A stretch of 64,000 nucleotides of DNA from Octopus vulgaris (Eukaryota): the NCBI GenBank assembly GCA_951406725.2, contig OX597818.1:125736001-125800000 (forward strand). Reading direction: 5' to 3'. Both the position numbers and the translations under genes were made by a program. Position 1 is the first letter of the stretch. Every line of letters starts with the position of its first letter. The notes beneath the pieces were generated by a model, which saw only the letters and a list, made by a program, of their open reading frames with translations, was not told the origin of the DNA and made no database searches. Below are positions 3,529 through 62,990 of this stretch, piece after piece.

Positions 3529-4382
3529 TTGGGTTGAGGAATAATTCATGAGCGTTTCAGAAATAAAAAACATTGACAAAATGTTTTATGTTATCTAAAA
3601 TAATTTTTTGCTTTACAAGATTGTGTGTTTTAATTTTTAAATTTTATAGATTTTTGTGTATTTTCAGATCATTTAAATGGAATGTCAAGTGGACAAAATT
3701 GGGCACTTTTGACACCATTTGCTTTTTGCATTTAATCGAGGTGCTAAGGCCGCCGAAGCTGCTCGTGAGATTTGTACTGTGTGTCTGGAGAAGGAGCAAT
3801 GTCTCAAAGTACCGCCCATCGTTGGTTTTCACGCTTCAGAAATGGCAATTTTGACCTCAAGGACGGATCACACACCAGTCGATCAACTGATTTCGATGAA
3901 GGCATAATTCATTACGAACTGCTTGAGCTCAACAAAACACTCAATGCGGAGCTCTACGTTTAGTAACTGCGCCGACTCAACGAAGCAGTTTAGCTCCCCC
4001 CCCACAAAAAAATAGAAACGAATAGGCGAAATGGCATTCTTCTGCAACACCACAACGTCCTTCCTCACATCGGCAATATGACCAAAGCTGCGATCGATTC
4101 AAGAACACGAATAGCACCGTCATCCCTTTCGACGGTTTTCGAACGCTTTGCACGATGTATCGTTCAATAATGACGTGGAATAGAAAGGGTTGGTTGGACT
4201 AATTCTTTGAGCCAAGGCCGGGAGATTTCTATCGCCGAGGCACCGGAAAAACTTATTGATCGATCGATGAGAGGAAGTCGTAAACAACAACGGAGAGTAT
4301 ATTATTGATTAATTTGCTGTAGTTTTTTTTTATTTAAAATAAATATGACAAAAAAACGTTCATGAATTATTCCTCAACTTAA
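3529..4382 (+). mobile_element. Internally deleted mariner transposon (transposase pseudogene)
   Basis: About 29-bp TIRs ttgggttgaggaataattcatgagcgttt / aaacgttcatgaattattcctcaacttaa with TA on both sides. Translation from ATG 3677 gives LLFAFNRGAKAAEAAREIC, RWFSRFRNGNFDLKD, then jumps to GIIHYELL. Stops and frameshifts present. Confidence 0.93.
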
Positions 4383-11976: not shown

Positions 11977-12033
<57 letters not shown>

Positions 12034-12664
12034 ATCTATATATATAAACACACACACACACACACACAAACACGACACAAACACACTCACACATACATAT
12101 ATAAATTTGTGTGTATGTGTATAGTTTGCTTTGCATTTGTCTCCCCCCCCCCCCATCTACGCCTCACACCACCATTTGCTTGCGTCCTTGTAACTTAACG
12201 GTTCGTCAATAGAGATAGAGAGAATAAGGCTTAATAGTAAGTGCTAGTGTCGATTTGTTTCACTAAAGCCTTTTAGGTGGTGCCCCAGTGTGACCGTAGG
12301 CCAAAGAAGTAAAAGGTCAAAGTTAAGATATAATATATGGGAGTGTGTTTGTGTGTGTCTTTGTGAGTGTGTGAGTGTGAGTACATTCTCACACATACAC
12401 ACATATATACACTCAAGCATACACTCACACATACCAACACGCTCTTTAATTGACAATACCTGTCAATTACTGTAAATAAATGTGTTATATTACATTCCAG
12501 ATTCCGTTAACCTGCTAAACACCGTAATGAAATTTAACCTTGTAGAATGACTACAAACATAATGTATATAGGTATGTGTATATATTTCTCTGTGTGTGCA
12601 CTTCCGAGTGTTTCCTATATGTATGTATGTATGTATGTATTTATGTATGTATGTATATATACAA

Positions 12665-12749
<85 letters not shown>

Positions 12750-12947
12750 CATTACAGATATAGGGTAAAATATTATAAATTTAATAAATTAACAAATTTT
12801 ACCAAAGTAGTTTCGGTATGGAAAAGAACCATATTCAGTAAAAACTTATACAAAAAGTTTTTTTATATATTATTATAACAATAATTAAGGGTTTAGCAAC
12901 AAGTTGCTTCACCACATACCGAAAATTTAGAAATAGCAGCCAAAAGA

Positions 12948-12994
<47 letters not shown>

Positions 12995-13039
12995 GAAATC
13001 TAATAGATATAAATTAATTTATTAATTAACTCACATATT

Positions 13040-13133
13040 CACCTACGATTGTTTCATTTCACAAACAACATTAAAATTACAAAACATATATAATTTTGCA
13101 TTTTAAATACCCCGTGTTTAAATCATCAGGGAG
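13040..13133 (-). ncRNA. Type I hammerhead motif with long AU-rich stem II (stems partly decayed)
   Basis: Minus strand: ctcc CTGATGA [about 67-nt hairpin] GAAA caatcg TA ggtg; related to the GAAACGATCGTA motif at 15709. Confidence 0.6.
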
Positions 13134-13337
13134 GGTGTACAAAGGACAATACAAGAATTCATTTAAAATACGTTTGGAATATGCAAAATATATAGACATG
13201 TTTATTATGTGTGTATGCATATGTGTGTGTGCATATGTGTGTATGCACACGCACATACACACACACGCACACACACACCCGCACATAAACACACATACCC
13301 ACAAACTCATACCCACACACACATACACATACATATA

Positions 13338-13595
13338 CCAACGGACGCTCTATCAATTACGACGACGAGGGTTCCAGTTGATCCGATCAACGGTACAGCC
13401 TGCTCGTCAAATCAACGTGAACAGACGTATACCCTTAACGTAGTTTCTCAGAGAAATTCAGTGTGACATAGAATGTGACACGGTTGGGCCTATGAAATGC
13501 GGGCACTACTCATTTTTGTTGTCGGAGAGAACTGGAGCAATGAGAAATAAAGTGTCTTGCTCAAGGAGACAACATACAGCCGGGAATTGAATATG
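13338..13595 (-). mobile_element. tRNA-derived SINE family C
   Basis: Reverse complement ttcaattcccggc..ccttgagcaagacactttatttc..ttgctccag..ctacgttaagggtat..gatcggatcaactggaaccctcgtcgtcg; decayed relatives near 29520, 40370, 44150 and 54130. Confidence 0.75.
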
Positions 13596-13934
13596 TTCTG
13601 ACTTCATGCATTCCGACAGAAACATTTGCGATGACACTAGTGCTTAACTGTTTCGGCCCACGATGGCAGAATTTTCCTTGGATAATATCAGAGTGTAGAG
13701 AGAAGACACACGCTAGCATAGGCATCTGGTGCTCTTTCTAAAAAATAAACTAGCTTGCCCAGACCAGTGCATACATGACCAGATGCACGATAAGCTTTGG
13801 TCAAGTGAAGACCTGACATGTACAAGAAGAGAAAGATGTAGAAACGCAACGGCAAATTGAAGAAAGAGATATATATAAAGAAAGAGAGAGAGAGAGAGAT
13901 AAAAGGGAAATTTCTCATTTTTGAGTGTGTGTGT

Positions 13935-14060
13935 GTGGTCCGGCAAAAGAGCCGATAAAATAAGTACCAGATTTATACTGGGCTCGATGTGTTCGACCGA
14001 ACTCTTAAAGGCGGTGCCCCAGCATGGCCACATTGTAATGACTGAAACAAATAAAAGGAA
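13935..14060 (+). mobile_element. SINE family A 3' tail
   Basis: cggcaaaagagccgataaaataagtac..aaggcggtgccccagcatggcc..gactgaaac. Confidence 0.8.
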
Positions 14061-14198
14061 ACTTATATATACACCATTCTGCTTAGATAATGGAACTGCA
14101 AATATAATATCCTTACGTATCTCACGTCTGTCTTTATTCCTCCACTTCACTCTGTATTTCATATCTTTATAACTATTACTTAAACATTTTCTCACACC

Positions 14199-14246
14199 GC
14201 CTCTGATGAAGGGATATATAAAATATTCCGGAAACATCTGTAAGAC
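14199..14246 (+). ncRNA. Minimal type I hammerhead ribozyme in a Penelope-like tail
   Basis: gcct CTGATGA a gggatat ataaa atattcc g GAAA catctg TA agac; intact core, 7-bp stem II, one mismatch in stem I. Confidence 0.75.
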
Positions 14247-14336
14247 TTTCTCTTTATAAATGTTCTGAAAACTATTCACAGACTTGGATATTTTAATCTT
14301 ATTCTGTTAATTTTTATATATGTATATATATATATT

Positions 14337-14399
<63 letters not shown>

Positions 14400-14563
14400 T
14401 AAACGCGTAGTATAATGCGTAGTCTACAGACACACACACACACGTATATATGTACATACATACATACATACGTACATACATATACATACATACATACATA
14501 CATATGTGTGTGTGTATGTACGCATGTATGTGTGTGTGTGTGTGAGTGTGTGTGTGTGTGTGT

Positions 14564-14600
<37 letters not shown>

Positions 14601-15339
14601 TGTATTAACAAACAGAATAAGAACGTTATAAATGTTCGTGCAAATAACATTTCCGATATCCCATTGGGTGTGTTAACAAGAAATAGAAATATTAATGGTT
14701 TATTAATTTAATATAGATATATTGACGCTTCGGTTTCAAAAATGGCCTATTTCTCCCCCAAACCACTACCTACGATAAATTTTATCAGATTTATCTTCTG
14801 GATTTATTTCTTATATTTTTAAACATTATTTCTTTTTGCCGTTGTTATATTTCAGGCGCCTTCATTTTACTGAAAGCTTCATTGATAATATGTAAAAAAT
14901 ATCCTTCTTTCGTATATGTTTCGTTTCGTTTTCTTCTGCACTGTGTCATTTCAGGGTTATTAAGCAAGGCATGTCTAATCTAAATTTCATATCTTCACGT
15001 TTTTTTTTTAAGTAATATTAAAAATTTTTTATGTATGAGCGGGGGCGTTGTCTTTGGAGCGTCACTTTTCATATATGATACGACAGACTTGATAGCAACT
15101 GATTCGTAGATACAGCGTATAAAATGTAAGCCATTTGAAATTTGGTATTTGAAACAATTTAGAGACAATGGTTTACTGATACGGATTGAAATATACTTAA
15201 TGCGTAGTACCTAAGCTCAACTTCTTATACACGCAAACACGTACATACATACATACATACATACATACATACATACATACATACATACATACATACCTAA
15301 GCTCAACTTCTTATACACACACACAAACACTTCATTGTT

Positions 15340-15470
15340 TTTCGGTCTCCTTTCGGTACTGTTTTCGGTGAAAAAGCGAGGTGGACAAAGCTGTTCTTCT
15401 TTGCGCCTCCTGCTGTGATGTGGGCTCATCTGGGATTTCTGATAGAAATTTGTCTTGGTGCTTGATGCTA
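15340..15470 (-). mobile_element. CR1-like LINE C-terminal fragment (second subfamily)
   Basis: ORF track DKFLSEIPDEPTSQQ resembles LDKFLQGIPDKP of the 37445 element. Confidence 0.55.
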
Positions 15471-15544
15471 TCATTAAGGCCATTTATATTCAGTGACCAG
15501 ATGGTGCGAAACATTGTATTTGCACATGAAATGGTGTTCTACAA

Positions 15545-15780
15545 GATTAGGATTGAATCCAATTTTATAGTAAAATATTATATTATATTAAATTAGAGAC
15601 AAAACCACTATTAGGCAAATCAAACAATGAAAGACTTAAGCCAATACATATGATTAATTTATATTATTTAAATATGTAACAAAATTATCAAAAAATATAA
15701 TTAATATCCCACTACGATCGTTTCCTGCCTGCTGTCTTCAAATTTTTGAGTCGCAGTCATTCATCAGGTGGTTTAAATAT
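15545..15780 (-). mobile_element. Non-autonomous Penelope-like/retrozyme element carrying a hammerhead
   Basis: 15545-15650 is the reverse complement of 27250-27360 and related to 36270-36410; contains the hammerhead at 15709. Confidence 0.7.
15709..15771 (-). ncRNA. Minimal type I hammerhead ribozyme, intact
   Basis: Minus strand: ccac CTGATGA a tgactgc..tcaaa aa tttga..gcaggca g GAAA cgatcg TA gtgg; perfect stem I, palindromic stem III, GUA site. Confidence 0.88.
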
Positions 15781-16267
15781 CTAAAATATAATCAATATTT
15801 TTAAGATATAAATAATATATATAATATAAAATAATAATTTACTTATAATAAACTCTATTATTAAATATGATTATATCGAAATCGACTATAATGTTAAATA
15901 TTAACTTTAATTTATAAGGTAGAAAACCCATATTCTAATATCAATATTAGTCTATATCTAATTACATAAATATTTAAAATGACTAATATATATAAATTAT
16001 CAATGAAAATATATATAAATATTATAATCAAGATCTAAAATAATCTCTATAAATAATTGTATATAATGAAAACCTAATAAATTTAATTTTTCATATTTAA
16101 AGATCAAATAGCTAATTTCAAAATACAAATAAACTAACTTAAACTACTTTCAAAATCTTATGTAAAATACTTATAGAAATATTCAATTCTTAGTAATATA
16201 GTATTAAATAAATACTATAAGTACTATAAACATAATTATGAATGGGAATAATTATCTAATATAAATT

Positions 16268-16330
16268 ATGCTATTAAATTAGACATGGCCTAGACCATCT
16301 TTAGTCGAAACATATCTAATTTTATCAAAG
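16268..16330 (+). mobile_element. CR1-like LINE extreme 3' tail
   Basis: gctattaaattagacatggcctagaccatctttagtcgaaacatatctaa matches tails at 31200 and 54740. Confidence 0.75.
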
Positions 16331-17406
16331 TTTATCTAATTTATTTAATATCTAATAACATAGAAAATTACGATAATTAGATCATTACATAAACAACAAT
16401 ATTTACATAAGGAGAATATTATTACTCCAAAGGCTTATACAATATTAAAAATTTACAATTTGAAGATCTTAAAAAGATACATACTTTTCTTGGCGATATT
16501 TAAACAATGAACTAGAATTTTGAATCAAAAAATGTCTTATACAGCGTTTATAAGAATGCTCGTGGAATTACGTTATTAGCAAAAAAAAAGAATAAATTGT
16601 TGCAGAATTCTTTACGTGTGAGGAACCTACGTTAATTAAAGATTATGAATGGAAAATTATATGTTTATCATTGTAAAAAGAATGAATTCACAAATAAAGA
16701 ATAAAATCTCTCTATACTATAATATTTATTAATAAAAAAACTATGATAAATGAAACTTAATACAAAATAAATTAAATGATTAAAAACCACTTATTATTAA
16801 ATATATTCTAAAAATCTAATAAGATTAATAAATACATAAAAATAAATTTATATAGTAACCCCACTACATATTATAAATTATTTCCCATACCCTTATAAAT
16901 ATAAGCTAAAATTAGTGATCATAACAAATCTATATATACTAATCAAAATTTGTAGTATAACTATACATACGTATACATAAATATATAAGAAAATATCCAT
17001 ACATATACATTTATATATACATATATACACATATACACATATACATACATATACATATACATACACATATACACATACATACTCACATACATTCATATAC
17101 ATATATACACACATATATACACACACGTACACCCATACACATATGCACACTCATACATACATGTACATACATACAATACTCAATATATACACTTACACCA
17201 ATATATACACACCCACACACATACAAATAAATAAATGCATATACTATATATATACACACACACATCATCAAATACACAAATGCAATTCGAAGAAGCCTGC
17301 CATTTACCGGATGTAATATATGTAAACTCCCCCATGTGCTTCGTTGACGTTGAACAGTTAGCTGCTTGGCTTCGACGAGACAGGGTCGTTTATTTATGAT
17401 ACGTTC

Positions 17407-17455
17407 AGGCTTGCTGAGGAGTACGTAAGTACGAAATCACAGGTGATACAAGTCT
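17407..17455 (+). ncRNA. Type I hammerhead ribozyme, intact
   Basis: aggcttg CTGAGGA gtac gtaa gtac GAAA tcac ag gtga TA caagtct; 7-bp stem I, 4-bp stem II with GUAA tetraloop, 5-bp stem III, AUA site. Confidence 0.9.
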
Positions 17456-17876
17456 ATATTTTTTAAATGTCTTGCTTTGAAAGATTGCATTCGGTGGGAT
17501 TAGTAAAATTTTTGGTAGAAATGACTTTTTGTCCCTCTTAGCGTGTGGCATCTATGTATAATAATGCCCTCTATATATAAATATATATATATATATATAC
17601 ACTAAGATACAAAATTTAAACACAAACACAACACAGGAACAAACGGAAAATTCACACACCATACAGGGCGTTGCTCATTTCTCGTTAGTTATCGTTCAGA
17701 GACAAAGCGAGTAACAGAATGAGAGTGAGAGAGTGAAAGAGCGGGAGAGAGAGAGAGAGAGATTGTGTGTGTGTGTGTTGAGCGATTAAAGACGGTAAAG
17801 CAAACGGCGTTTCTCTAAATCATCTCTGTGTAATGAGAAATAAAAGTAGTAATTACAAATTAAATGACCAAACAAA

Positions 17877-18033
17877 AGCGAGACAATAGCGAGAGGACAG
17901 CGAAACAACAGCGAGAGGACAGCGAAACAACAGCGAGACAACAGCGTGACAAGAACCCTTTCATCCCTTAAGCTGACAAATCTTAGAATTCAGCGCTGTA
18001 TCGACAGATCTTAGAATTCAGCGCTGTAACGAC
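17877..18033. repeat. 11-bp minisatellite (cagcgagacaa variants) followed by a 28-bp tandem duplication
   Basis: agcgagacaat/agcgagaggac/agcgaaacaac units; aca(a/g)atcttagaattcagcgctgta(t/a)cg occurs twice. Confidence 0.85.
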
Positions 18034-18291
18034 AACTCTTTTGAAGTAGACAAGCGAAGAGGAAATTATTAATTCAAACAGAACATAATAGAGATATTGT
18101 TGTAACGAATATTTATCCGGGTCGTGTCTTACTGTGTGAAAGAGGCTAGCACTAGCTATCCTTTTCTTATCCATTCACGTGATGTTGGGCTGTATTCATC
18201 GATGGTCACCATACCACAAGAAGAGAACAAATGAAGTCAAACTCATGTACGTACACTCACTCACCCACAGGCACATACACGCGCGTACACT

Positions 18292-18335
<44 letters not shown>

Positions 18336-18413
18336 GTGTATGTGTATGTATATTCTTATATGTTTCAGCCTTAAGGCTGCAGCTATGCTGGCGCACCACC
18401 ATACATATACACA

Positions 18414-18462
<49 letters not shown>

Positions 18463-18463
18463 G

Positions 18464-18506
<43 letters not shown>

Positions 18507-18656
18507 GTTTTTCAGCCGTGGTGCCCCAGCATGGCCGCGGCCTTCGGGCTAAAACATTTTTAAGGATTTAAGGATATATATATACATATATACTTTTATA
18601 TTAATATGTGAGTATATGTATAAATATATTTGTTTATATGTAAATATATATATATA

Positions 18657-19940
18657 TAGATTCATCCCATAAATAATGCGGTTTTTTTTATACTTCTTGT
18701 ATTTTTCAAAATTAAAATAATCAAATTTTTTTTAATCTAACATACACCCTCCTTCATTTTCTACAATGTTCTTCCATGTATCTGATAAACTTGCAAGGCC
18801 CCTCTTTCAAAATTCACATATTCGTGACAAAAAATGCTCCTCTAGTACCCTTCTGACTTCGTCTACAGAATTCATATTTTTTTCCGTTCAAATGATTGTG
18901 AAGAGTACGAAATAAATGGGAATCAGATGGGGCAATGCCCGGCGAATATGGTGGGTGGGGCGTCATTTCCCATTCCATCGCTCCAGCCTTTGGAACGTCA
19001 TCCTCGCCGTCATGTGGCCGAGCATTATCCCGAGGGAAGAAAGCCTTTCGTCTTGAAACCAAAGATGGTCGTTTTTCTTCTAGCGCTGACTTAAGCCGCT
19101 CAAGATGATCGCTGTAGATCTACTTTGTTATCGTTTGTTTTGGGTTTAAAAGTTCAAAGTAGACTAATCTTTCATATCTCACCAAACAGATAACAACACC
19201 TTACATGGGTGAAGACCTTTAGCTTGGGGTGCCGGTGTTTCTCCTTTCCCTTTGGGGTGCCGGTGTTTCTCCTTTTTCGGCGCTTGACGTTTTTATAGAG
19301 AACCCATTTCTTGTTACCAGTCACTGTTCGGTCCAGAAAAGATCCATTCATAAGATGTGACAACAAAGAAGAGCACAAATTCACTCTCTGTGCGCGATTA
19401 GACTCGGAAAGTTTGTGAGGAACCCATTGACCCAATTTGCTGACTTTTCCGATGTGTCGATGAATGATTAAATGACTAAATCAAAGCTTCTCTGCTAGTT
19501 CCTCAACATTTACGATGGGATTTGTTCCACTGGGGTCTGTAGGACGTCTTCGCCGAGCCCTACACATCTTCCAGTACGAGGCTCGTCTTTTAGGCTGTAG
19601 TTTCCGGCTCGGAATTTCTAAAACCACCATTGACACTGGCTTACGCTTCTTGTCCGATCCTCATATGCTGCATTAATATTCCTCGCACTTTCCGTTGCGT
19701 TATTGCCTTTATTGAACTCGTTAAAAAATATGCCGAATATGCTCCTTTAAAACTTCCATTATAGCTTTGAAAAATAACAGTTAAAACGAATCTCTCTCTT
19801 CAAAACATGCACTAAGAATAAGTACACGGTAAAATTAGTATCTGATTTCATAGCAAGTTGATGCAGGTAGTTTATTCCGTCCCCCTCCGGTATTTATTTC
19901 ATGCAATTGAAATAACGGCATTATCTATGGAATGACCCTA
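18657..19940 (-). mobile_element. Full-length degenerate mariner transposon
   Basis: Imperfect TIRs tagattcatcccataaataatgcggtt / aacggcattatctatggaatgacccta in TA context, about 1.28 kb. Motifs WVPHKL, TVTGNKKWVLY, RDNARPH, HPPYSPGIAPSDSHLF. ATG at 19759, with frameshifts. Confidence 0.93.
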
Positions 19941-20326
19941 TATAATATATATATATTTTTTTTACTTAATTTGCTTTTTGCGGGAAAGACTGTTTCAATG
20001 AAATCGTGTTTCGCCTTTACCTTCGGAACGCGGAGTAGATGAAACAGAGGCGGCTGAAGAAGAGGTATTTTCCTTGTGTTGTATGTCTTGTACTCTATTT
20101 TTTCGTTGTTTAAGAAAAATGTCCATTTCTTTGGTTTTGTGTTTATGTTTTCGTTTCTCATTGTGTTCGACGTTTTTTGGTCTCCTGTACCCATATATGC
20201 ATGTATATATATACATGTAGATATAGGTACGTACATATATGTATGTATATATGCATATGTTTTATTTATTAATTTGTTATTATATGACGGAACGCACGCA
20301 TCCATTTCTAAGTAAGTTTTATCTTA

Positions 20327-20369
<43 letters not shown>

Positions 20370-20402
20370 AATATTATATACAGATATATAGATATATATG
20401 TA

Positions 20403-20795
20403 TCTCTCTCTATATATAAAGCTGAAGTTGTCTGTGTGTGGCAGGTTTGGTAACCTTCAACTAACACTATCTCCTCCGAAACCCTGCGGCGCAAGTTGAC
20501 CAAAATTGAGAGTATGATAGAAGAAGGCTTGCTCTTTATTCCGTAGAAGAAAAAATTCAAATCGGACCATGTTAACACCAAAAATTATTTACATCAAAAA
20601 GGTGCTTTTTTTCTAAGAAAATCCCTATTTTTTACGATTTTTTAACTGCTGTGTCGCCATTTTGCGGTGTATTTCAACCAGAAAAATGTTCACTTAAAGA
20701 GAATAATAAGCTACATAATGCAAAATTTTTTCTTATCAAAAATTCCAATTCTAAAGGGTCGAAACAAACCCGAGCAACGCCGGGCGATACTGCTA

Positions 20796-20796
<1 letters not shown>
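20403..20796 (+). mobile_element. Non-autonomous Helitron
   Basis: 5' TC start (tctctctctatatataaag), 3' hairpin cccgagcaacgccggg followed by CTAG, inserted between A and T. Confidence 0.82.
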
Positions 20797-20839
<43 letters not shown>

Positions 20840-21142
20840 TATTAGAGAGTAGGAACTATTAGACCTGACACCGTGTATTAACCAGTGTTGTTCAAACGAT
20901 GAATAGCTTTGCGTAAACCATTGGTTCGTTTTATTCTTTTACTTTATTATCATCTTATAATCATCTCATAATAATGACTTTTATGGCTCGTATTACTACC
21001 TCAGTCGATCTAAATGTATATACTTGTCGTTATCTGTCATAAATAGCCTTTTTCTATTTGCAATATGCATTTTCGTTGATTTTTCATATTTTACCCTTAC
21101 TTTTCAACGTGTATTTTATATTTTCTTTTCGTAACATATTTC

Positions 21143-21197
<55 letters not shown>

Positions 21198-22724
21198 CTT
21201 ACATCAGATGTATACATATACTTAAATATGTATAAGCATATATATACATATACATATATATATACATATATATATACATATATATATAGGTAGATAGATA
21301 GACAGACAGATAGATAGATACGCATGCATACAAAAATGTTCATCCGTAGAAAAATACAAAAGCATCTCATCCGAAACGCCTGGAACACATAAAATACAGT
21401 GGAATTTATTAATTCACCTACCCATGTGACAATTGACAACGTCACTTGTCAACACAGATTTCATTCAATGTTTTCTTTCTTGACATTTTGAAACTTCTTT
21501 TCTTTTGCTTTCTTCTTTTCCAACCTCCTTCATTTTTATATTCTGTCTTTTCTTTCATGTGTCCCTGTAAAGCCACAGTCTATTGAATGCACCGTCGGAT
21601 ACGAAAATACTATTTCGATATTTGGAGAAAATAAGTTAAGATAAGATAAATCAAAATGACGAAGCACAAGTGGGAAATAATACATCAAATATATCGGGAA
21701 ATGAATATATAAAATAAACAAATAGAAAGGCATAAACTATAATAAGATTAAAGGAATAAATTAAAATAAAGAAGACAATATATAAGGAAGAAGAAGAATA
21801 ATTGAAGGAAAACAGGCTAACCCTAAATATAAATAGTATTTAGTTGCTTGGCTAATAAACTCAACTTGTTAATCGCGAGTAAACAGAACTGGTAATTCTT
21901 TGAAGTTTCGTATAAAGTATACACACACATACATATGCACACATTCACAGATACACTCATATAGATATACATGCACAATCCCATTCACAAATATATTGGC
22001 ACACACGCGTATAGACGAAGATACACACCCAACACGCACACTTGCACGCATACAAATAAGCTCAACAACTTGTTTGTAGTCTCTACGTAGTTGTTTGCTT
22101 TATGTACACACGCACACACACGTGTTTGTGTGTGTGTGTGTGTGTGTGCATGTGTGCGTGTATATATATATATATCCTCCAAGTAAGTTTTTGTATATAT
22201 ATATATACATATATATATATGTGTGTGAGTGTGTGTGTGTGTGTGTAGTAATACCAGCACCAGCAGTGAAGGCGGTAGTAGTAGTAGTCGTAGTAGTAAT
22301 CGTCGTCGAAGTTGTTGTAGTATTAGTATTAGTAGTATTAGTAGTAGTAGTAGTAGTAGTAGTAGTAATATACTTCTTATTGTGGTGAATTTCTCGACTG
22401 CCAGACGACACAAAGTATAAACTTGTAAGGACTTTCCGAAGTTTCTTCGAGTAAAAATATCCATAACCCGACGGATGAGACAAACGATTAGAACTACCAC
22501 CACCACCACCACCACCATTAATAACTACCACTACCATCACCATCAATGCTATAACCTCCACTACAACCAACACCATCACACCTCAGCCAGTACTGATACG
22601 ATTTCCACTATTGACGTATCAAATATCAACACCGCTCAAACCCCACCAGTCAAACCTGACCCCATACTCTTGCCACAGTAACTACCAGTAACATCACAAC
22701 TATTAAATGTGTGTTAAAGAGAAT

Positions 22725-23269
22725 GGATCTTTTCCTTTTGAAGGTCAGATTTCAACACAATTTCTAGTTAACTAAATACTTTAAAACTTCGTATACTGGT
22801 AGAATGTGTCAAAAGAAAATATCATTTCCATTTGGCTTTCTTGATAAATTTGTAATTCGTTTGTTTAACGTAGTTTAATTTTTCGAATTTTAACCAATCC
22901 TATGCTCTCTTTTGACCTAAAATCATTTGCTGCGTCTAAAAACTGAGACAGCATCCTGTAACTAACCCTCCCCCTAAATCTAACCCTAATTTTTTTTTCT
23001 TAATTGTCAAATTAATTTAATTGTTACGCGTTTTACAGGATGTTGTCTCAGTTTTTAGAAGCAGCAAATGATTTCAGCTCAAATACAGGCGATTCATCGG
23101 TTAAAATTCGAAAAATTTAACAACGTTAAACAAACGAATTACAAATTTATCAAGAAAGCCAAGTGAAAATAATGTTTTCTTTTGACACATTCTACCAGTA
23201 TACGAAGTTTTAAAGTGTTTAGTTAACTAGAAATTGTGTTGAAATCTGGCCTTCAAAAGGAAAAGATCC
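22725..23269. mobile_element. Merlin-like foldback MITE
   Basis: About 235-bp TIRs (ggatcttttccttttgaagg... / ...ccttcaaaaggaaaagatcc); exact 8-bp TSD aagagaat at 22717-22724 and 23270-23277; TIR related to the 9905 element. Confidence 0.9.
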
Positions 23270-23452
23270 AAGAGAATAAATTCAGATTCGATTATGAATT
23301 CTAGAGGTTATGAGAAAATCCAAAGGCATGGATTTAAAGGATTCGGCGAAAACAAAAGCAGTAAAAAACTGCAGATTACATGCTATGGAAATACACCGCT
23401 CTCATTTCCCAAGTCACCCAGCCATGTGTAAACCGTCCCAGGTCTAAAATGT

Positions 23453-23609
23453 GTGTGGCTGTGTGGTATGAAGTTTGCTTACCAACCACATGTTTCCAGG
23501 TTCAGTCCCACTGCGTGGCAGCTTGAGCAATTGTCGTCTACTATAACCTCGGACCGACCGAAGCTTTGTGAGTAGATTTGGTAGACGGAAACTGAAAGAA
23601 ACCTGTCGT
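23453..23609 (+). mobile_element. SINE family A 5' half
   Basis: gtggctgtgtggtatgaagtttgc..ggttcagtcccactgcgtggca..gtagacggaaactgaaagaa. Confidence 0.85.
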
Positions 23610-23660
23610 ATGTATGTATGTGTGTATATACATACATACATACATACATACACACACACT

Positions 23661-23691
<31 letters not shown>

Positions 23692-23725
23692 GGATATATG
23701 TATGTATGTATATGTATATATATAT

Positions 23726-23814
<89 letters not shown>

Positions 23815-27241: not shown

Positions 27242-27407
27242 ATTATAATTTATGTATTGGCTTAAGTCTTTCTTTGTTTGATTTGCATAATAGTGGTTTT
27301 GTCTCTAATTTAATATAATATAATATTTTACTATAAAATTGGATTCAATCCTAAATCTGATTTTTCCCTGTAAATTTGGATTTATTCCCTAATATTTATT
27401 ATATATT

Positions 27408-30732: not shown

Positions 30733-31260
30733 ATCACTCAGTAAACGAATTGAAGGCATGACTGATCTCGATTAATGGGACCGTCTTAAAGCCTTGAAAC
30801 TCTACTCTCTCCAGCGCCGCCGCGAGCGGTACACCATTTGTACGATGTGGAGAACATACCGCCAGCATTGCCGAACTGACCACAACATTAGTTTCAAGGT
30901 TCATCCAAGGCTGAGACAACGGGCCATACGTCCCCTGCCCAATTCAAAATCACAACTTATAGGTACACTGCGACATAATTTCTTTTCCTCAAAAGGCCCT
31001 GCCCTGTTTAACATTGTCCCAAAACTGATTAAAGAGGAAAAGGATCTTATCACCTTTAAACGGAGTCTGGACATATTTCTTCAAAAAATACTGGTTACGC
31101 CACCCATACCTGGATACAATTCACTCAACAAGAACTAACTACTTGAATGGACCATAAACAAAACTTGACATAAAAAGGATATAGATAATCCTATCAGGTG
31201 GTGCTATTAAGTTAGACATGGCCTGGACCAAACTTTGGTCGAAGCATATCTAAGTTTTAA
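30733..31260 (+). mobile_element. CR1-like LINE, 5'-truncated 3' end
   Basis: ORF LKLYSLQRRRERY..GPALFNIVPKLIK..FKRSLDIFL; 3' stem-loop tail gaccaaactttggtc. Confidence 0.85.
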
Positions 31261-31725: not shown

Positions 31726-31930
31726 ATCCAAACATGAAAACACAAAGAGAAAACACAACAACGCGAGGACGTGGAACAAATATAGTATTAATGGACGCTC
31801 GGAAAGGTAGGGAAGAAGGAGGGTTTAACGTTTCGAGCGGAGCTCTTCGTCAGAAACATAGGATAAGGAAAGAGCCAGAGAAGGGAAGACGGAGGAAAAA
31901 AATCGCCAACGGTACACACGCGGTCACATT
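31721..31930 (-). mobile_element. About 200-bp hammerhead-bearing element (same family as 28460)
   Basis: Reverse complement of 28460-28672, flanked by (TA)n. Confidence 0.8.
31823..31857 (-). ncRNA. Ultra-minimal type I hammerhead (35 nt), intact core
   Basis: Minus strand: gttt CTGACGA a gagc tcc gctc GAAA cg TT aaac; palindromic ACGU stem III, GUU site. Confidence 0.8.
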
Positions 31931-33140: not shown

Positions 33141-33183
33141 TTCATTAGCGCTTTCTCCCATTCTAGTGGGGTTTTCAAATGAA
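33141..33183 (-). ncRNA. Minimal hammerhead with U3-A8 variant core
   Basis: Minus strand: ttcat TTGAAAA c ccca ctagaa tggg a GAAA gcgc TA atgaa; perfect 5-bp stem I and palindromic stem III. Confidence 0.7.
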
Positions 33184-36269: not shown

Positions 36270-36413
36270 ATAATAAATATTAGGGAATAAATCCAAACTT
36301 ACAGGGAAAAATATAAATATAAATTGATTATATAAATTGATTTATGTATTGGATTAAGTCTTTCTTTGTTTGATTTGCATAATAGTGGTTTTGTCTCTAA
36401 TTTATATATAATA

Positions 36414-36993: not shown

Positions 36994-37444
36994 TATATAC
37001 ATATATATATATACATATATACATTCATATATATATACACATATAGACATATATATATAAACACACACATATCTACATATATATATATACATATATATGT
37101 AAATATATATACAAATACAGATGTTCATATATATATATGTACATATGTGTGTGTTTATATATATATATGTCTATATATGTATGTATATATGTATAAATAT
37201 ACACGCGCACATGCACAGACGCACACATACACAAACGCGAACAAACACATACACACACATACGCACACACAACACCCTGACAAATAACAATCACACACAT
37301 ACACACACACACACACACTCATGTACACACACACTCACGTACACACACATAACATCCCCACCAACACAAAAACACACAAACATATACACGCACCCACAGA
37401 CCCACACATACACACACTCGAAGAAACACATACATGTGTTTTTG

Positions 37445-38748
37445 TGGTATCGTGGTCCATTCGAGTAGCGGGTCCTTGTTGAGTGAGTTGTATCCAGCAA
37501 TAGGTGGCTTATCTGGAATTCCTTGAAGAAATTTGTCCAGTTTCCGTTTAGAGGTAACAGGATCCTTTTTCTCTTTGATCTGTTTCGGGACTGTGTTAAA
37601 TAGGGCAGGGTCTGTTGAGGAAAAGAAATGGTGTTGCAATGTACTAATGAGTTGTAATCCTGAATTGGGTAGGGGACGTATGACCCATGGTCCAAGCCTT
37701 GGATGAATTTTGAAGCAAATGTTGAGGTCGTTTGGGCAATGCTGGCGGTATAATTTTCACATGGTGCAAATGATGTATCATGGACAGCGGCGCTGGAGAG
37801 ATTAGTGTTTCGATGCTTTAAGGCGGTCTCAGTAATTGAGATCACTCATTACCTTTATTCTTTTAGTGAATGAACTCTGGGATGATTCAATTTTCGAAAT
37901 GTTTTGTTGGGGAGATCACAGGGGGCAGCAGGTGTGACCGTACAAACGAGGAGAAAAGTGGAATGATGACACCTTATTCTCTGGCCCGGAAGGTTCTTAT
38001 GATTCAGCTCTTCTTACCAGCTATATCGACCTTATTGTTGGTGTGGACACTCCAACTGAGAGTGTTATCAACAATTACTCCGAGGTCTCTGATATTATTA
38101 GATACTGTGAGAGGTTCCCCTGAAGGAAGAGAATGGCTGTTTTAGCATAGTCTTTTTACCAAAATCCATCAGCTCTAATTTTCTCTCGTTTAGTTGCGTT
38201 TTGTTTTTGTCTGCCCATTGACTCACAGTGTGTAGATGAAACTAGAGTTGAGTTCGGGCTGGTTCTTCATTGCTAATTTTCTGGAGCTTACAGTCATCAG
38301 CAAATATTTTCAATTTGCTCTGTTTTATGACGGTGGACAGGTCGTTTATATAGGATATAAAGAGGAGCTGATCCAAGACAGTCCCCCGAGGGACACCGCC
38401 GGTGATATTTACTGGGCTTGAGTGGATTCCATCGACCACAACATGTTGTATTCTGTTCACCAGGAACTACCCAATCCAGTGTAGAAATTTTCTACGGATT
38501 CCAACATTTGTAAGTTTTGTTTGTAGGATATTATGGTCAACTCTGCCGAACGTTTTACTGAAGTCAAGATATATGACATTAGAGTTCGAACTTGTTCCCA
38601 AGGGTTTAAGTATAACAATGATGTGCTGTAAGAGGTGTTTTAGACAGTCCCTGCCACATCGAAAATCATGCTGGTTTGGATCTAGGATCTTGTGGCTCCC
38701 CAAGAAGCCACCTATCCTTGATCTTACCACCCTTTCAAACACTTTGTA
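37445..38748 (-). mobile_element. CR1-like LINE reverse transcriptase pseudogene
   Basis: LDPNQHDFRCGRDCL, VIYLDFSKTFGRVDH, GVPRGTVLDQLLFISYINDL, KIFADDCKL and LDKFLQGIPDKP across frameshifts. Confidence 0.92.
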
Positions 38749-38757
38749 TACATATAA

Positions 38758-38813
<56 letters not shown>

Positions 38814-39120
38814 ATATATAATTAGTTTAATCTAATTCAATTCAATCATGAATTTTCATGATTTTGTCATCCTTGTACGAAATGATCCTTAGCATGAATT
38901 AAAATTCTCTTATATATTTTAACAAATTGCCTAATCCATTTTAAACCAAACTGATGAGGTTTATGGGATTTCTTTCCATAAATTCACAACACATCGTATA
39001 CAAGTATTATTTTCATATTCGCAAATTTACGCCTGTAAACTACCAGCAAAATATGACGAATCAACTTTGGAAATCTTTCTTGGAAACCTCCAAATTAAAG
39101 AATGAATCTACGTCTTTACA

Positions 39121-60931: not shown

Positions 60932-60934
<3 letters not shown>

Positions 60935-62990
60935 TGAACCAAAAAATTATAGACCCATAACCTGCTTCACAACAATGTATAAAATACTAACAACCGTCTT
61001 GACTGAATATACATATAGTTTTTTAATGGAAAGTGGTATATTCCTTAATGAACAAAAAGGATGTAAACGTGGGTTCTATGGTTGTAAATATCAGCTATTC
61101 ATCAATAAGATGATCTTGGAAGATTGTCACAAACGACAAATAAACTTGTCGATAGCCTGGATAGACTATAAATATGCTTTTGATAGTCTACCACATAGCT
61201 AGGTTAAGAAATGTCTGGTAATATATAAAATAACACATCCTCTGCGAAACTGCTTGTGTGTAAGTTTGAGATCATGGAGAAACACACTGACTTTGAACAG
61301 TGGCAATGAATCTCTCAATGCTGGAGATGTGAGTATTTGATGTGGCATTTACCAGCGTGACTCTCTATCACCACTCCTCTTTTGCTAGCCTTAATACCTC
61401 TCTCGAAATTGCTTGATGATGTACAATATGGCTATAAAATGTTTGATAAAAATATAAATCATCTTTTTTACATGGATGATTTAAAGCTCTTTGCAAAATT
61501 GACCAATAACTACATGGCTTACTAGAAATTGTTAACAATTCAGTGCTGACATCAGGATGAAATTTGGCGTCGATATATGTGCAAAAGCTACCTTTAACAA
61601 AGGAAAAATGATACAAACATCCAACGTTAATCGTGACCAGCAGAATATCATAAAGGAGTTAGAACCAGCGGAAAATTACAAATACCTAGCTGTATTTGAA
61701 GGTGATGGATTCAAATATTCAATGATGAGGGAAAAGATCAGAAATGAATGTTATCGCAGGGTAAGAGCAATACTCAAGACAGAGCTGAATGCAAGAAACA
61801 GGATCGAGGCGATCAATTCCTTTAGCCATACCGGTCGTGACTTTCAGTTTCAATATCATTTACTGGTCAATTACAGAAATATGTAATTTTCACAGAAAAA
61901 TACGAAAATTGTTAACAATGCATAGAATGCACCACCCTAGGGCAGATATAAAAGGACTTTATCTGCCACGAAAAGAGGGTGGTCGTGGGCATTTACAACT
62001 TGAATTAACAATGAAGATTGCCACAATTGACCAAATCCCCTACCTGAAAAACTCAGATGACTGGATATTAAAACTTGTCTCAATGCACGAAAACAAGAAA
62101 ACATCATAACAAAACAGGCAAACAAATATCTAAGTGAATTCCAAATACAACAAACCCCAGAATTAGACTTACTGGAAACAAGCACAGAAAAAGCTAAGCG
62201 TATGAAAACCCGTGCTAAAACTGCTACCTTAGATATTCTTACTGATAAATGGCTGGAAAAGCTCTCAATGGCAAATACCCAAAGAGAGCTTATAATGCTG
62301 ATGTTGATAAAGCCCTTGCCCATCAATGGTTAATGTCTTCTGGCTTAAAATCAGAAACAGAAGGGTTTATCACAGTAGTCCAAGATCAATGCTTACCTAC
62401 AAGGAGTTACCAGGCCAACACATTAAAGAACGGCAGTAGCCCAACATGTCGTGTATGTAAACAAAAAAAATGAAACCATTGATCATGTTGTCTCCATATG
62501 TAGTCTTCATGCGCCTACAGAATATCTCAACAGGTATGATAGAGCAGCACAATATATTCAATGGGTAATTTGCAAAAGCCTGGATTTGCCCCATGATAAA
62601 AACTGGTGGGAACACAAACTACCTCCAGTGCTTGAAAACGACCACATCTCACTTCTCTGGAACTTCCCCGTTCAAATTCACAGATAGTTAGATGCGAATA
62701 GGTCAGACATTATATTGAAGGACTTCAGACAAAAATCATTCCTCGTCATTGATATGACTATCCCAATTGGCATAAATATATCTGTCAAGACCTACCAAAA
62801 ACTGAGCAAGTATAAAGCTCTTGAAATAGCAATTGGCAAAATGTGGAACGTCAAAACTATAACAATAGCTGTTGTCATAGGTGCCTAAAGAATGATAGGA
62901 AAAGGGACTGATTGCTACCTAGCTGAGATACCAGGAAACCCCAAAATGGCAGAAATTCAAAAGATAGTGATCATGGGAACTGCTCTTGTG
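60932..62990 (+). mobile_element. 5'-truncated R4/Dong-clade non-LTR retrotransposon (RT, CCHC, RLE) pseudogene
   Basis: YRPITCFTTMYK, EQKGCKRG, AWIDYKYAFDSLPH, NHLFYMDDLKL, LYLPRKEGGRG, CRVC..ETIDHVVSIC, RSDIILKD..IDMTIP..K.SKY; preceded by (AAT)n at 60874-60931; many stops. Confidence 0.92.

Follow-up and report, generated by a model that had tools for sequence, protein, structure and literature searches.

A type I hammerhead of an octopus genome

The hammerhead ribozyme at 17407–17455 of the window (the whole 64-kb stretch of octopus DNA analysed here; coordinates in Table 1) very probably belongs to a 5'-truncated copy of a non-LTR retrozyme of about 460 bases, likely copied into TA microsatellites by a Penelope-like enzyme, probably one of the Hydra clade, with a ribozyme predicted to act mostly as two tandem copies together. 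Hammerheads are already known from animal retrozymes and Penelope-like elements, and the motif itself is ordinary. The ~460-base repeat around it likely represents a new family of animal non-LTR retrozymes, and the copy in the window is physically joined to a Hydra-type element, the short ends of the two lying at similar distances past their cut sites (132–141 nt in the retrozyme, 137 nt in the Hydra-type element).

Table 1. Features of the composite insert around the hammerhead (window coordinates)
Feature	Position	Strand	Basis or remark
(TACA)n microsatellite, left edge of composite insert	15242–15296	.	
Fragment interrupting the Hydra-type tail	15330–15546	-	Absent from the paralog
Hydra-type Penelope-like element, 3' non-coding part, 5'-truncated	15547–17278	-	Dispersed repeat; 96% identity over 1696 bp to L205
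Hammerhead of the Hydra-type arm (second in the insert)	15709–15771	-	Missed by stricter scans
5'-truncated unit copy	17278–17588	+	Dispersed copies that share its ends reach 99% identity
Type I hammerhead	17407–17455	+	Sequence, motif scan, chance control, family covariation
(TA)n tract at the 3' junction	17575–17599	+	Overlaps the TA-rich end of the element

Structure and recognition of the hammerhead

Stem I pairs AGGCUUG with CAAGUCU (17407–13 and 17449–55; seven pairs, including one G-U), the core CUGAGGA occupies 17414–17420 on the plus strand, and stem II (17421–32, GUAC-GUAA-GUAC) has a GUAA loop and a G10.1-C11.1 pair at 17421/17432. GAA at 17433–35 precedes a near-palindromic helix III (17436–47, AUCAC-AG-GUGAU), and A17 at 17448 ends an AUA triplet, directly after which the cut is predicted. 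The core elements CUGANGA, GAA, A15.1-U16.1 and H17 are all present, as are three helices with an open stem I, and compensatory change in the family supports this fold. A sequence-only reading of this DNA had called it a textbook-quality hammerhead that could cut after 17448; that it is a genuine hammerhead of type I with this cut site, the motif scan, chance control and family conservation bear out; the GNRA loop, the G10.1-C11.1 pair and the AUA site that it listed can all be read in the sequence of this copy. Its further statement that the stems are fully paired over 7, 4 and 5 bp holds for stems I and II but not for helix III of a single copy, where a fifth pair would close a 2-nt loop (AG), so that four pairs are left. 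ViennaRNA likewise rejects the 2-nt-loop fold, places four pairs around CAGG in the single copy, and forms five only between two copies.

The hammerhead was the sole match in the window at each of three motif-scan stringencies, and 1500 simulated windows keeping the local trinucleotide make-up gave totals of 1 (strict), 8 and 35 matches at the three stringencies. Rfam returned no match at gathering score and no hammerhead family among its 11 matches at E ≤ 10; an Rfam match is not a defining feature of hammerheads, and the models miss some forms.

A dispersed, non-coding tandem unit

The window's own genome (2.8 Gb, 227 contigs) was searched with 17280–17570 as the query, and the 40 candidates scored, out of 2291, gave at least 44 matches at 91–100% identity. 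Exact matches genome-wide number 153 for a 22-mer that spans the cut site and 558 for a 25-mer further downstream in the unit, with none for the reversed control of either. The first 100 of the 558 matches fall in 58 loci, which gives some 300 insertions as a rough lower estimate. Complete units measure 457, 459 and 476 bp at 34% GC. The window copy comprises unit positions 287–457 followed by positions 1 to ~140 past the cut site, where it stops at the "short" end of the family, and beyond its (TA)n tract lies flank common to the window and a paralogous segment. In a repeat search of the whole window, microsatellites dominated the output.

The unit appears to be non-coding: Pfam gave no match in the three frames scanned over 17086–17436, no Penelope protein match was found in the 64-kb window, and no frame with reverse transcriptase (RT) and GIY-YIG domains occurs within or between units. 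Circular units are predicted to fold strongly, with z-scores of -5.4 to -7.0 (25 shuffles each) and 64–69% of bases paired. The unit is thus like a retrozyme in being non-coding, low in GC and free of LTR features, and the family, of which the window holds less than one unit, is like one in consisting of short tandem units with a hammerhead in each. Metazoan non-LTR retrozymes as described in PMC7229834 and bioRxiv 10.64898/2026.07.22.740005 (these and all other publications are cited for the accessible parts of their text) also have short non-coding tandem units with one type I hammerhead each, a GC content below 45%, a circle predicted to be highly self-paired, and dispersed monomers and dimers, and Penelope-like helpers have been proposed for them. 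The octopus family differs in its cephalopod host, in unit length (457–476 bp vs the 170–400 nt quoted), in its mostly partial tandems and inverted arms, and in its two fixed ends and (TA)n targets; this two-end, (TA)n layout does not appear in the accessible retrozyme descriptions of those two sources.

Could the unit instead be a terminal repeat (pLTR) that has come loose from an autonomous Penelope-like element outside the inspected loci? Most Penelope hammerheads are single truncated pieces (PMC4209133), and the inspected part of the family amounts to only 81 loci. On the other hand, the unit repeats on itself at 457–476 bp in tandem arms of up to ~1080 bp with one type I hammerhead per unit, no arm in the 81 loci runs from the unit into an RT frame except through the inverted junction at 17278, and the unit has no DNA similarity to three autonomous families. 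We consider a detached terminal repeat improbable, and keep to the reading of the unit as a retrozyme. A 2.9-kb spacing at C1:70.5 Mb, tried as a pLTR-ORF-pLTR arrangement, proved to be two separate insertions with no frame.

A sister non-coding family (L107–L131; ~75% identity) has a unit of ~497 bp and a longer helix II; it keeps the core and helix III, and its stems I and II are different (9 of 25 loci). By eye, the U2 upstream region resembles the stretch upstream of the sister-family hammerhead. When the unit was searched for a promoter of the small-nuclear-RNA type, its best 18-mer matches to 10 U2 upstream regions agreed at 13–15 of 18 positions, at scattered AT-rich sites and with no null computed.

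Insertion architecture

The architecture of the insertions was read from the 58 loci that cover the first 100 of the 558 25-mer matches, after manual removal of matches to neighbouring copies at L055, L140 and L152. Thirty-eight insertions are head-to-head and 20 have a single arm. Among the head-to-head insertions, 34 combine one short with one long end and four have one unclassified end; none is short with short or long with long. Arms of the unit stop ~132–141 or 252–264 nt past the cut site (160 and 282 nt in the 476-bp subfamily), and copies end in (TA)n at these two fixed sites.

Partial tandems, 5' truncation, an inverted copy, a tail at one end and a microsatellite target were all found in the family. 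Penelope-like insertions are described in PMC8557442 as partial tandems with an inverted 5'-truncated copy, a one-end tail and (TA)n targets, and PMC11167929 shows priming at two internal sites and cuts in both strands of AT-rich DNA, with a dimer predicted. By analogy, the two unit ends may be read as the positions of Penelope two-site priming, and the strict pairing of short with long ends would then be a genomic read-out of Penelope priming on two strands that can be tested in vitro. Likeness to Penelope-like elements extends to 5' truncation, partial tandems, the inverted copy, a tail read as set by two internal priming sites and AT-rich targets; the octopus unit differs in having no RT/GIY-YIG frame and in a tail of ~115 nt vs 30–40. 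Its hammerhead shares with those of Penelope-like elements (PMC4209133, PMC11167929) the type I topology and a palindromic helix III suited to a dimer, and differs in having four to five helix III pairs, where theirs is minimal, and no extra base before G10.1.

The 5' ends showed no general pile-up at the cut site; their positions scatter and include a cluster at +49 to +62. Two of the 20 single-arm insertions (L059 and L162) start at the cut site (P ~0.01–0.04 under uniform truncation), and both junctions share "ATA" with the TA flank. Such starts are a weak sign of in vivo cleavage and would fit monomer and dimer modes alike.

Conservation across the family

Conservation was assessed on 100 copies from 81 loci, which contain 52 distinct variants; 51 were used, and L172, a variant of the unit family with an extended helix II (hammerhead at L172:1418–1487, minus strand), was left out. 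The core is intact by pattern in 93 of the 100 copies. In the 51 variants N7 takes all four bases, and eight of the 12 other core positions never vary. The named structure has 96.9% of cells paired, compared with 20–40% in slid controls, and double changes occur in three pairs (U-A/C-G and G-U/U-A in stem I, G-C/A-U in stem II), although the count of double-changed pairs is not significant by itself (reached in 67 of 500 shuffles) and the kinship of the sequences inflates the other measures. Judged from these alignments, selection keeps the ribozyme at the level of the family.

The arms of helix III are nearly invariant around a centre that varies (AG, U, A, G, AU, AC), and its innermost C-G pair is held in 51 of 51 variants. 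The GUAA loop is found in 41 of 93 copies, and 12 of the 51 variants break the A2.7-U1.7 pair, which makes two of the features for which this hammerhead had been called "textbook" incidental: this copy has both, but neither the GNRA loop nor the seventh pair of stem I is constant in the family. U1.7 accompanies the GUAA loop in all 23 distinct variants that have it, and C1.7 is seen only with AGAG or AGAA loops (11 of 22), which probably form one lineage. The family also offers natural helix III variants, with centres of one and two nucleotides, for tests of monomer against dimer cleavage.

Single copy or pair

In nearest-neighbour models, which ignore core and tertiary contacts and are uncalibrated on a known monomer-active ribozyme, the hammerhead (-9.6 kcal/mol) is not the minimum-energy fold of a single copy and is surpassed by a misfold (-11.5 kcal/mol) that pairs core bases with helix III, its predicted share of the ensemble being ~0.03–2.6% across six contexts. 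For two 49-mers, the lowest predicted co-fold is a double hammerhead at -31.2 kcal/mol. In the full tandem context the double hammerhead beats the best single fold in only four of the eight evaluable loci, with probabilities that range from 7e-10 to 0.14. A palindromic helix III is regarded as a hallmark of dimers (PMC4209133), and other hammerheads met in the octopus genome also carry palindromic helices III. From these models a pair is predicted to cut better than a lone ribozyme, with some monomer activity plausible at 10 mM Mg2+.

The copy had been put forward as the best candidate for monomeric activity. What speaks for this is that its helix III is the longest of the three hammerheads found in the window and that U1.7 (17455) and the GUAA loop could make the known contact between loops 1 and 2, a U1.7/GNRA contact that PMC11875169 describes at second hand; what tells against it is the predicted misfold, the near-palindrome and the varying loop. 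Efficient cleavage by a single copy, through contact of U1.7 with the last A of GUAA, would be compatible with a retrozyme origin, and the copy would then cut any plus-strand RNA that reads through it. Four base pairs in helix III compare with one or two in canonical metazoan motifs (PMC4209133), single units of coral and mussel retrozymes do cleave, with rates of ~0.8 and 0.1 per min given for single retrozyme units (PMC7229834), U1.7 is constant among the GUAA variants, and the two insertions that begin at the cut site agree weakly, as they do with either mode. Yet A2.7 can pair with U1.7, a pairing found in PMC11875169 to reduce the rate; of the four triplets compared in PMC1636495, AUA gave the slowest cleavage; the innermost C-G pair of helix III, of use to a dimer alone, never varies; the "ATA" shared with the flank weakens the cut-site junctions; and the modelled single-copy ensemble is mostly not a hammerhead, with core bases paired to helix III in its lowest-energy fold. 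We hold efficient cleavage alone to be a tentative possibility, somewhat short of an even chance, and retain the pair as the predicted main working form.

The composite insert and its Hydra-type arm

The Hydra-type arm and the unit are joined head-to-head, with a 1-base overlap at 17278. L205, which the arm matches at 96% identity, carries an RT/endonuclease frame, and other copies of the 15547–17278 repeat continue into an endonuclease frame. Full-length relatives have frames of up to ~860 aa with DKT, YRDD, CxCx5C, CxxC and CxH; the exact RWK is absent in six of six, and KWK stands at the matching place in L204. Atlas scored the protein at 0.95–0.98 to HTH_animal and GIY-YIG clusters, Pfam and PDB gave no informative match to it, and BLASTP against a 775-aa Penelope protein was marginal (E 0.004). 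Its motifs, its C-terminal endonuclease, its hammerhead and its (TA)n target are shared with the Hydra clade (PMC8557442), from which it differs in reading KWK for RWK. With a 3' non-coding region of ~1.9 kb, this subfamily is longer than the <3 kb quoted there. Hydra-1_Obim, whose hammerhead likewise has a helix III of 4 bp around a 1-nt centre, agrees in its motifs by eye and is, also by eye, a different family. From these sequence features, the arm probably belongs to the Hydra clade. Its hammerhead has a core at 15767–15761, a palindromic helix III (ACGAUCGU), a 4-bp stem I, an A.G mismatch at the base of stem II and a predicted cut between 15713 and 15712. The translation of the fragment that interrupts the Hydra-type tail resembles what we take to be the 3' end of a CR1/L2-type LINE. 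Further Hydra-type end fragments lie at 27245–27405 and 36270–36408 of the window, the latter being two inverted pieces that lie near different end classes.

Hydra-type ends fall into two classes as well: among 25 aligned, 13 stop 137 nt past the cut and six stop at 212–215 nt, in (TA)n, while three run on into the element and three are unclassified, and L207 and L216 each pair one end at 137 with one at 212–215. The window's Hydra arm passes 137 and is cut at 165, ~28 nt beyond the short end, by the LINE-like fragment. Since the unit arm is short and the Hydra arm extends past its own short end, the junction at 17278 obeys the short-with-long rule.

A paralogous segment ~1 Mb away (L188; 84–96% identical across 12033–23737) lacks 15300–17590 and has a TA-rich tract in its place. 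It stems from an inverted segmental duplication (window 12033–23737 vs C5:126.738–126.747 Mb) and serves as an empty-site control. Private substitutions number 10 in 1379 positions of the Hydra arm and 0 in 303 of the unit arm; these counts are compatible with equal age (P 0.11) and lean to a younger unit. The unit and Hydra-type 3' regions have no significant similarity (z 0.4 and -1.2).

The two arms may have arrived separately, the unit entering a short TA tract of a Hydra copy already in place, the rest of which was then lost by recombination between such tracts, in which case the junction would say nothing of the helper. Hydra copies do have a short TA run exactly at the junction point, the substitution counts differ in the direction expected, and 28 Hydra loci and 33 unit loci yielded no second unit/Hydra junction. 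Against this, no substitutions in the unit arm would be met with P = 0.11 at the Hydra rate, the head-to-head orientation and the end classes follow the family rule, both arms are missing from the paralog, and there is one more mixed insertion, involving a different non-coding unit (L144/L181, C1:70.535–70.538 Mb), in which an arm of the 476-bp subfamily is joined, with no TA spacer, to an unrelated ~350-bp tandem unit. We regard separate arrival as a real but lesser possibility, and joint integration of the unit and the Hydra arm as moderately probable.

Copying mechanism and possible helpers

Under the retrozyme reading, tandem source loci would be transcribed, double hammerheads would cut the RNA to unit lengths, and ligation may close the products into circles. 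A Penelope-type enzyme acting as a dimer would nick both strands of a TA tract, reverse transcription would start at two internal sites, one for each strand (~135–140 and 255 nt past the cut), and the two cDNAs would be joined at their truncated ends. The window copy is less than one unit, and since the other hammerhead of the insert is on the minus strand, the one at 17407–17455 has no same-strand partner in cis. The copy is therefore probably a dead-end insertion, whose ribozyme could act only alone or in trans.

We see an even chance that the insert records one integration from two RNAs, in which a Hydra-clade enzyme dimer made one DNA strand from its own RNA, primed at the long site, and the other from a retrozyme RNA, primed at the short site, the cDNAs being joined head-to-head. 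The helper of animal retrozymes has only been hypothesised, with Penelope-like elements proposed (PMC7229834, bioRxiv 10.64898/2026.07.22.740005, in their accessible parts), and this reading, if true, would name one. It would also give the two halves of the dimer a template each, with priming fixed at one site on it, which would explain why short ends met long ones in 34 of 34 classified pairs.

A search for GIY-YIG helpers found two young Penelope families (781 and 775 aa) as alternative possible helpers; short AT-rich words apart, their DNA shows no similarity to the unit. Both have RT and GIY-YIG domains (L082, L084, L103 and L104, at C5:1.04 Mb, C6:133.3 Mb, C3:5.85 Mb and C8:53.4 Mb) and an overlapping second frame upstream of ~450–480 codons, where canonical elements are described as single-frame; this second frame gave no good Pfam match where scanned (L082). 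The 775-aa family has more than 130 near-identical matches and forms 4.27-kb tandems.

A role in the host

It had also been suggested that the hammerhead, if transcribed on the plus strand (for example within an intron), could cut a host pre-mRNA. This is unsupported, the motif being cargo of a recent mobile element in a stretch where the frames scanned gave only transposon domains, although the site may lie in a long intron. Adoption by the host to cut pre-mRNA at 17407–17455 would agree with the intact core of this copy and with the frequency of intronic retrozyme insertions, ~43% in Xenopus (bioRxiv 10.64898/2026.07.22.740005). But the copy matches dispersed ones at 99% identity and carries no private changes, it is younger than the segmental duplication shared with L188, and its surroundings are transposon debris: 150 scanned frames of the 293 candidates in the window gave no cellular Pfam domain, only Mos1-type and RT remnants. 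We consider such adoption very improbable, and a mobile-element cargo remains our reading. Mariner-type and LINE remnants lie at 3713–3960, 18814–19480, 30734–31154, 37291–38826 and 60933–62329 of the window; Pfam placed HTH_48 at 3713–3960 and RVT_1 at 38470–38826 and 60933–61199, and the other remnants were recognised by eye.

Related literature and other hammerheads

In the literature covered, with subscription papers mostly outside it, we found no description of the unit family or of a retrozyme/Hydra junction, and the accessible main text of PMC13282606 does not contain "hammerhead", "ribozyme" or "retrozyme". Background was also taken from PMC6155905 and PMC2220036, again from their accessible parts.

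The window holds a minimal hammerhead on the minus strand at 31853–31827, with a 4-nt palindromic helix III (ACGU) and probably part of another Penelope-type repeat, and a weaker candidate with a U3-A8 core at 33178–33146 (minus strand). Further non-coding units with hammerheads were met at L072 (3021–2961, minus strand), L090 (3041–2970, minus strand) and L189 (a 361-bp tandem), all with palindromic or near-palindromic helices III; one unit among these and L172 has a U3-A8 core.
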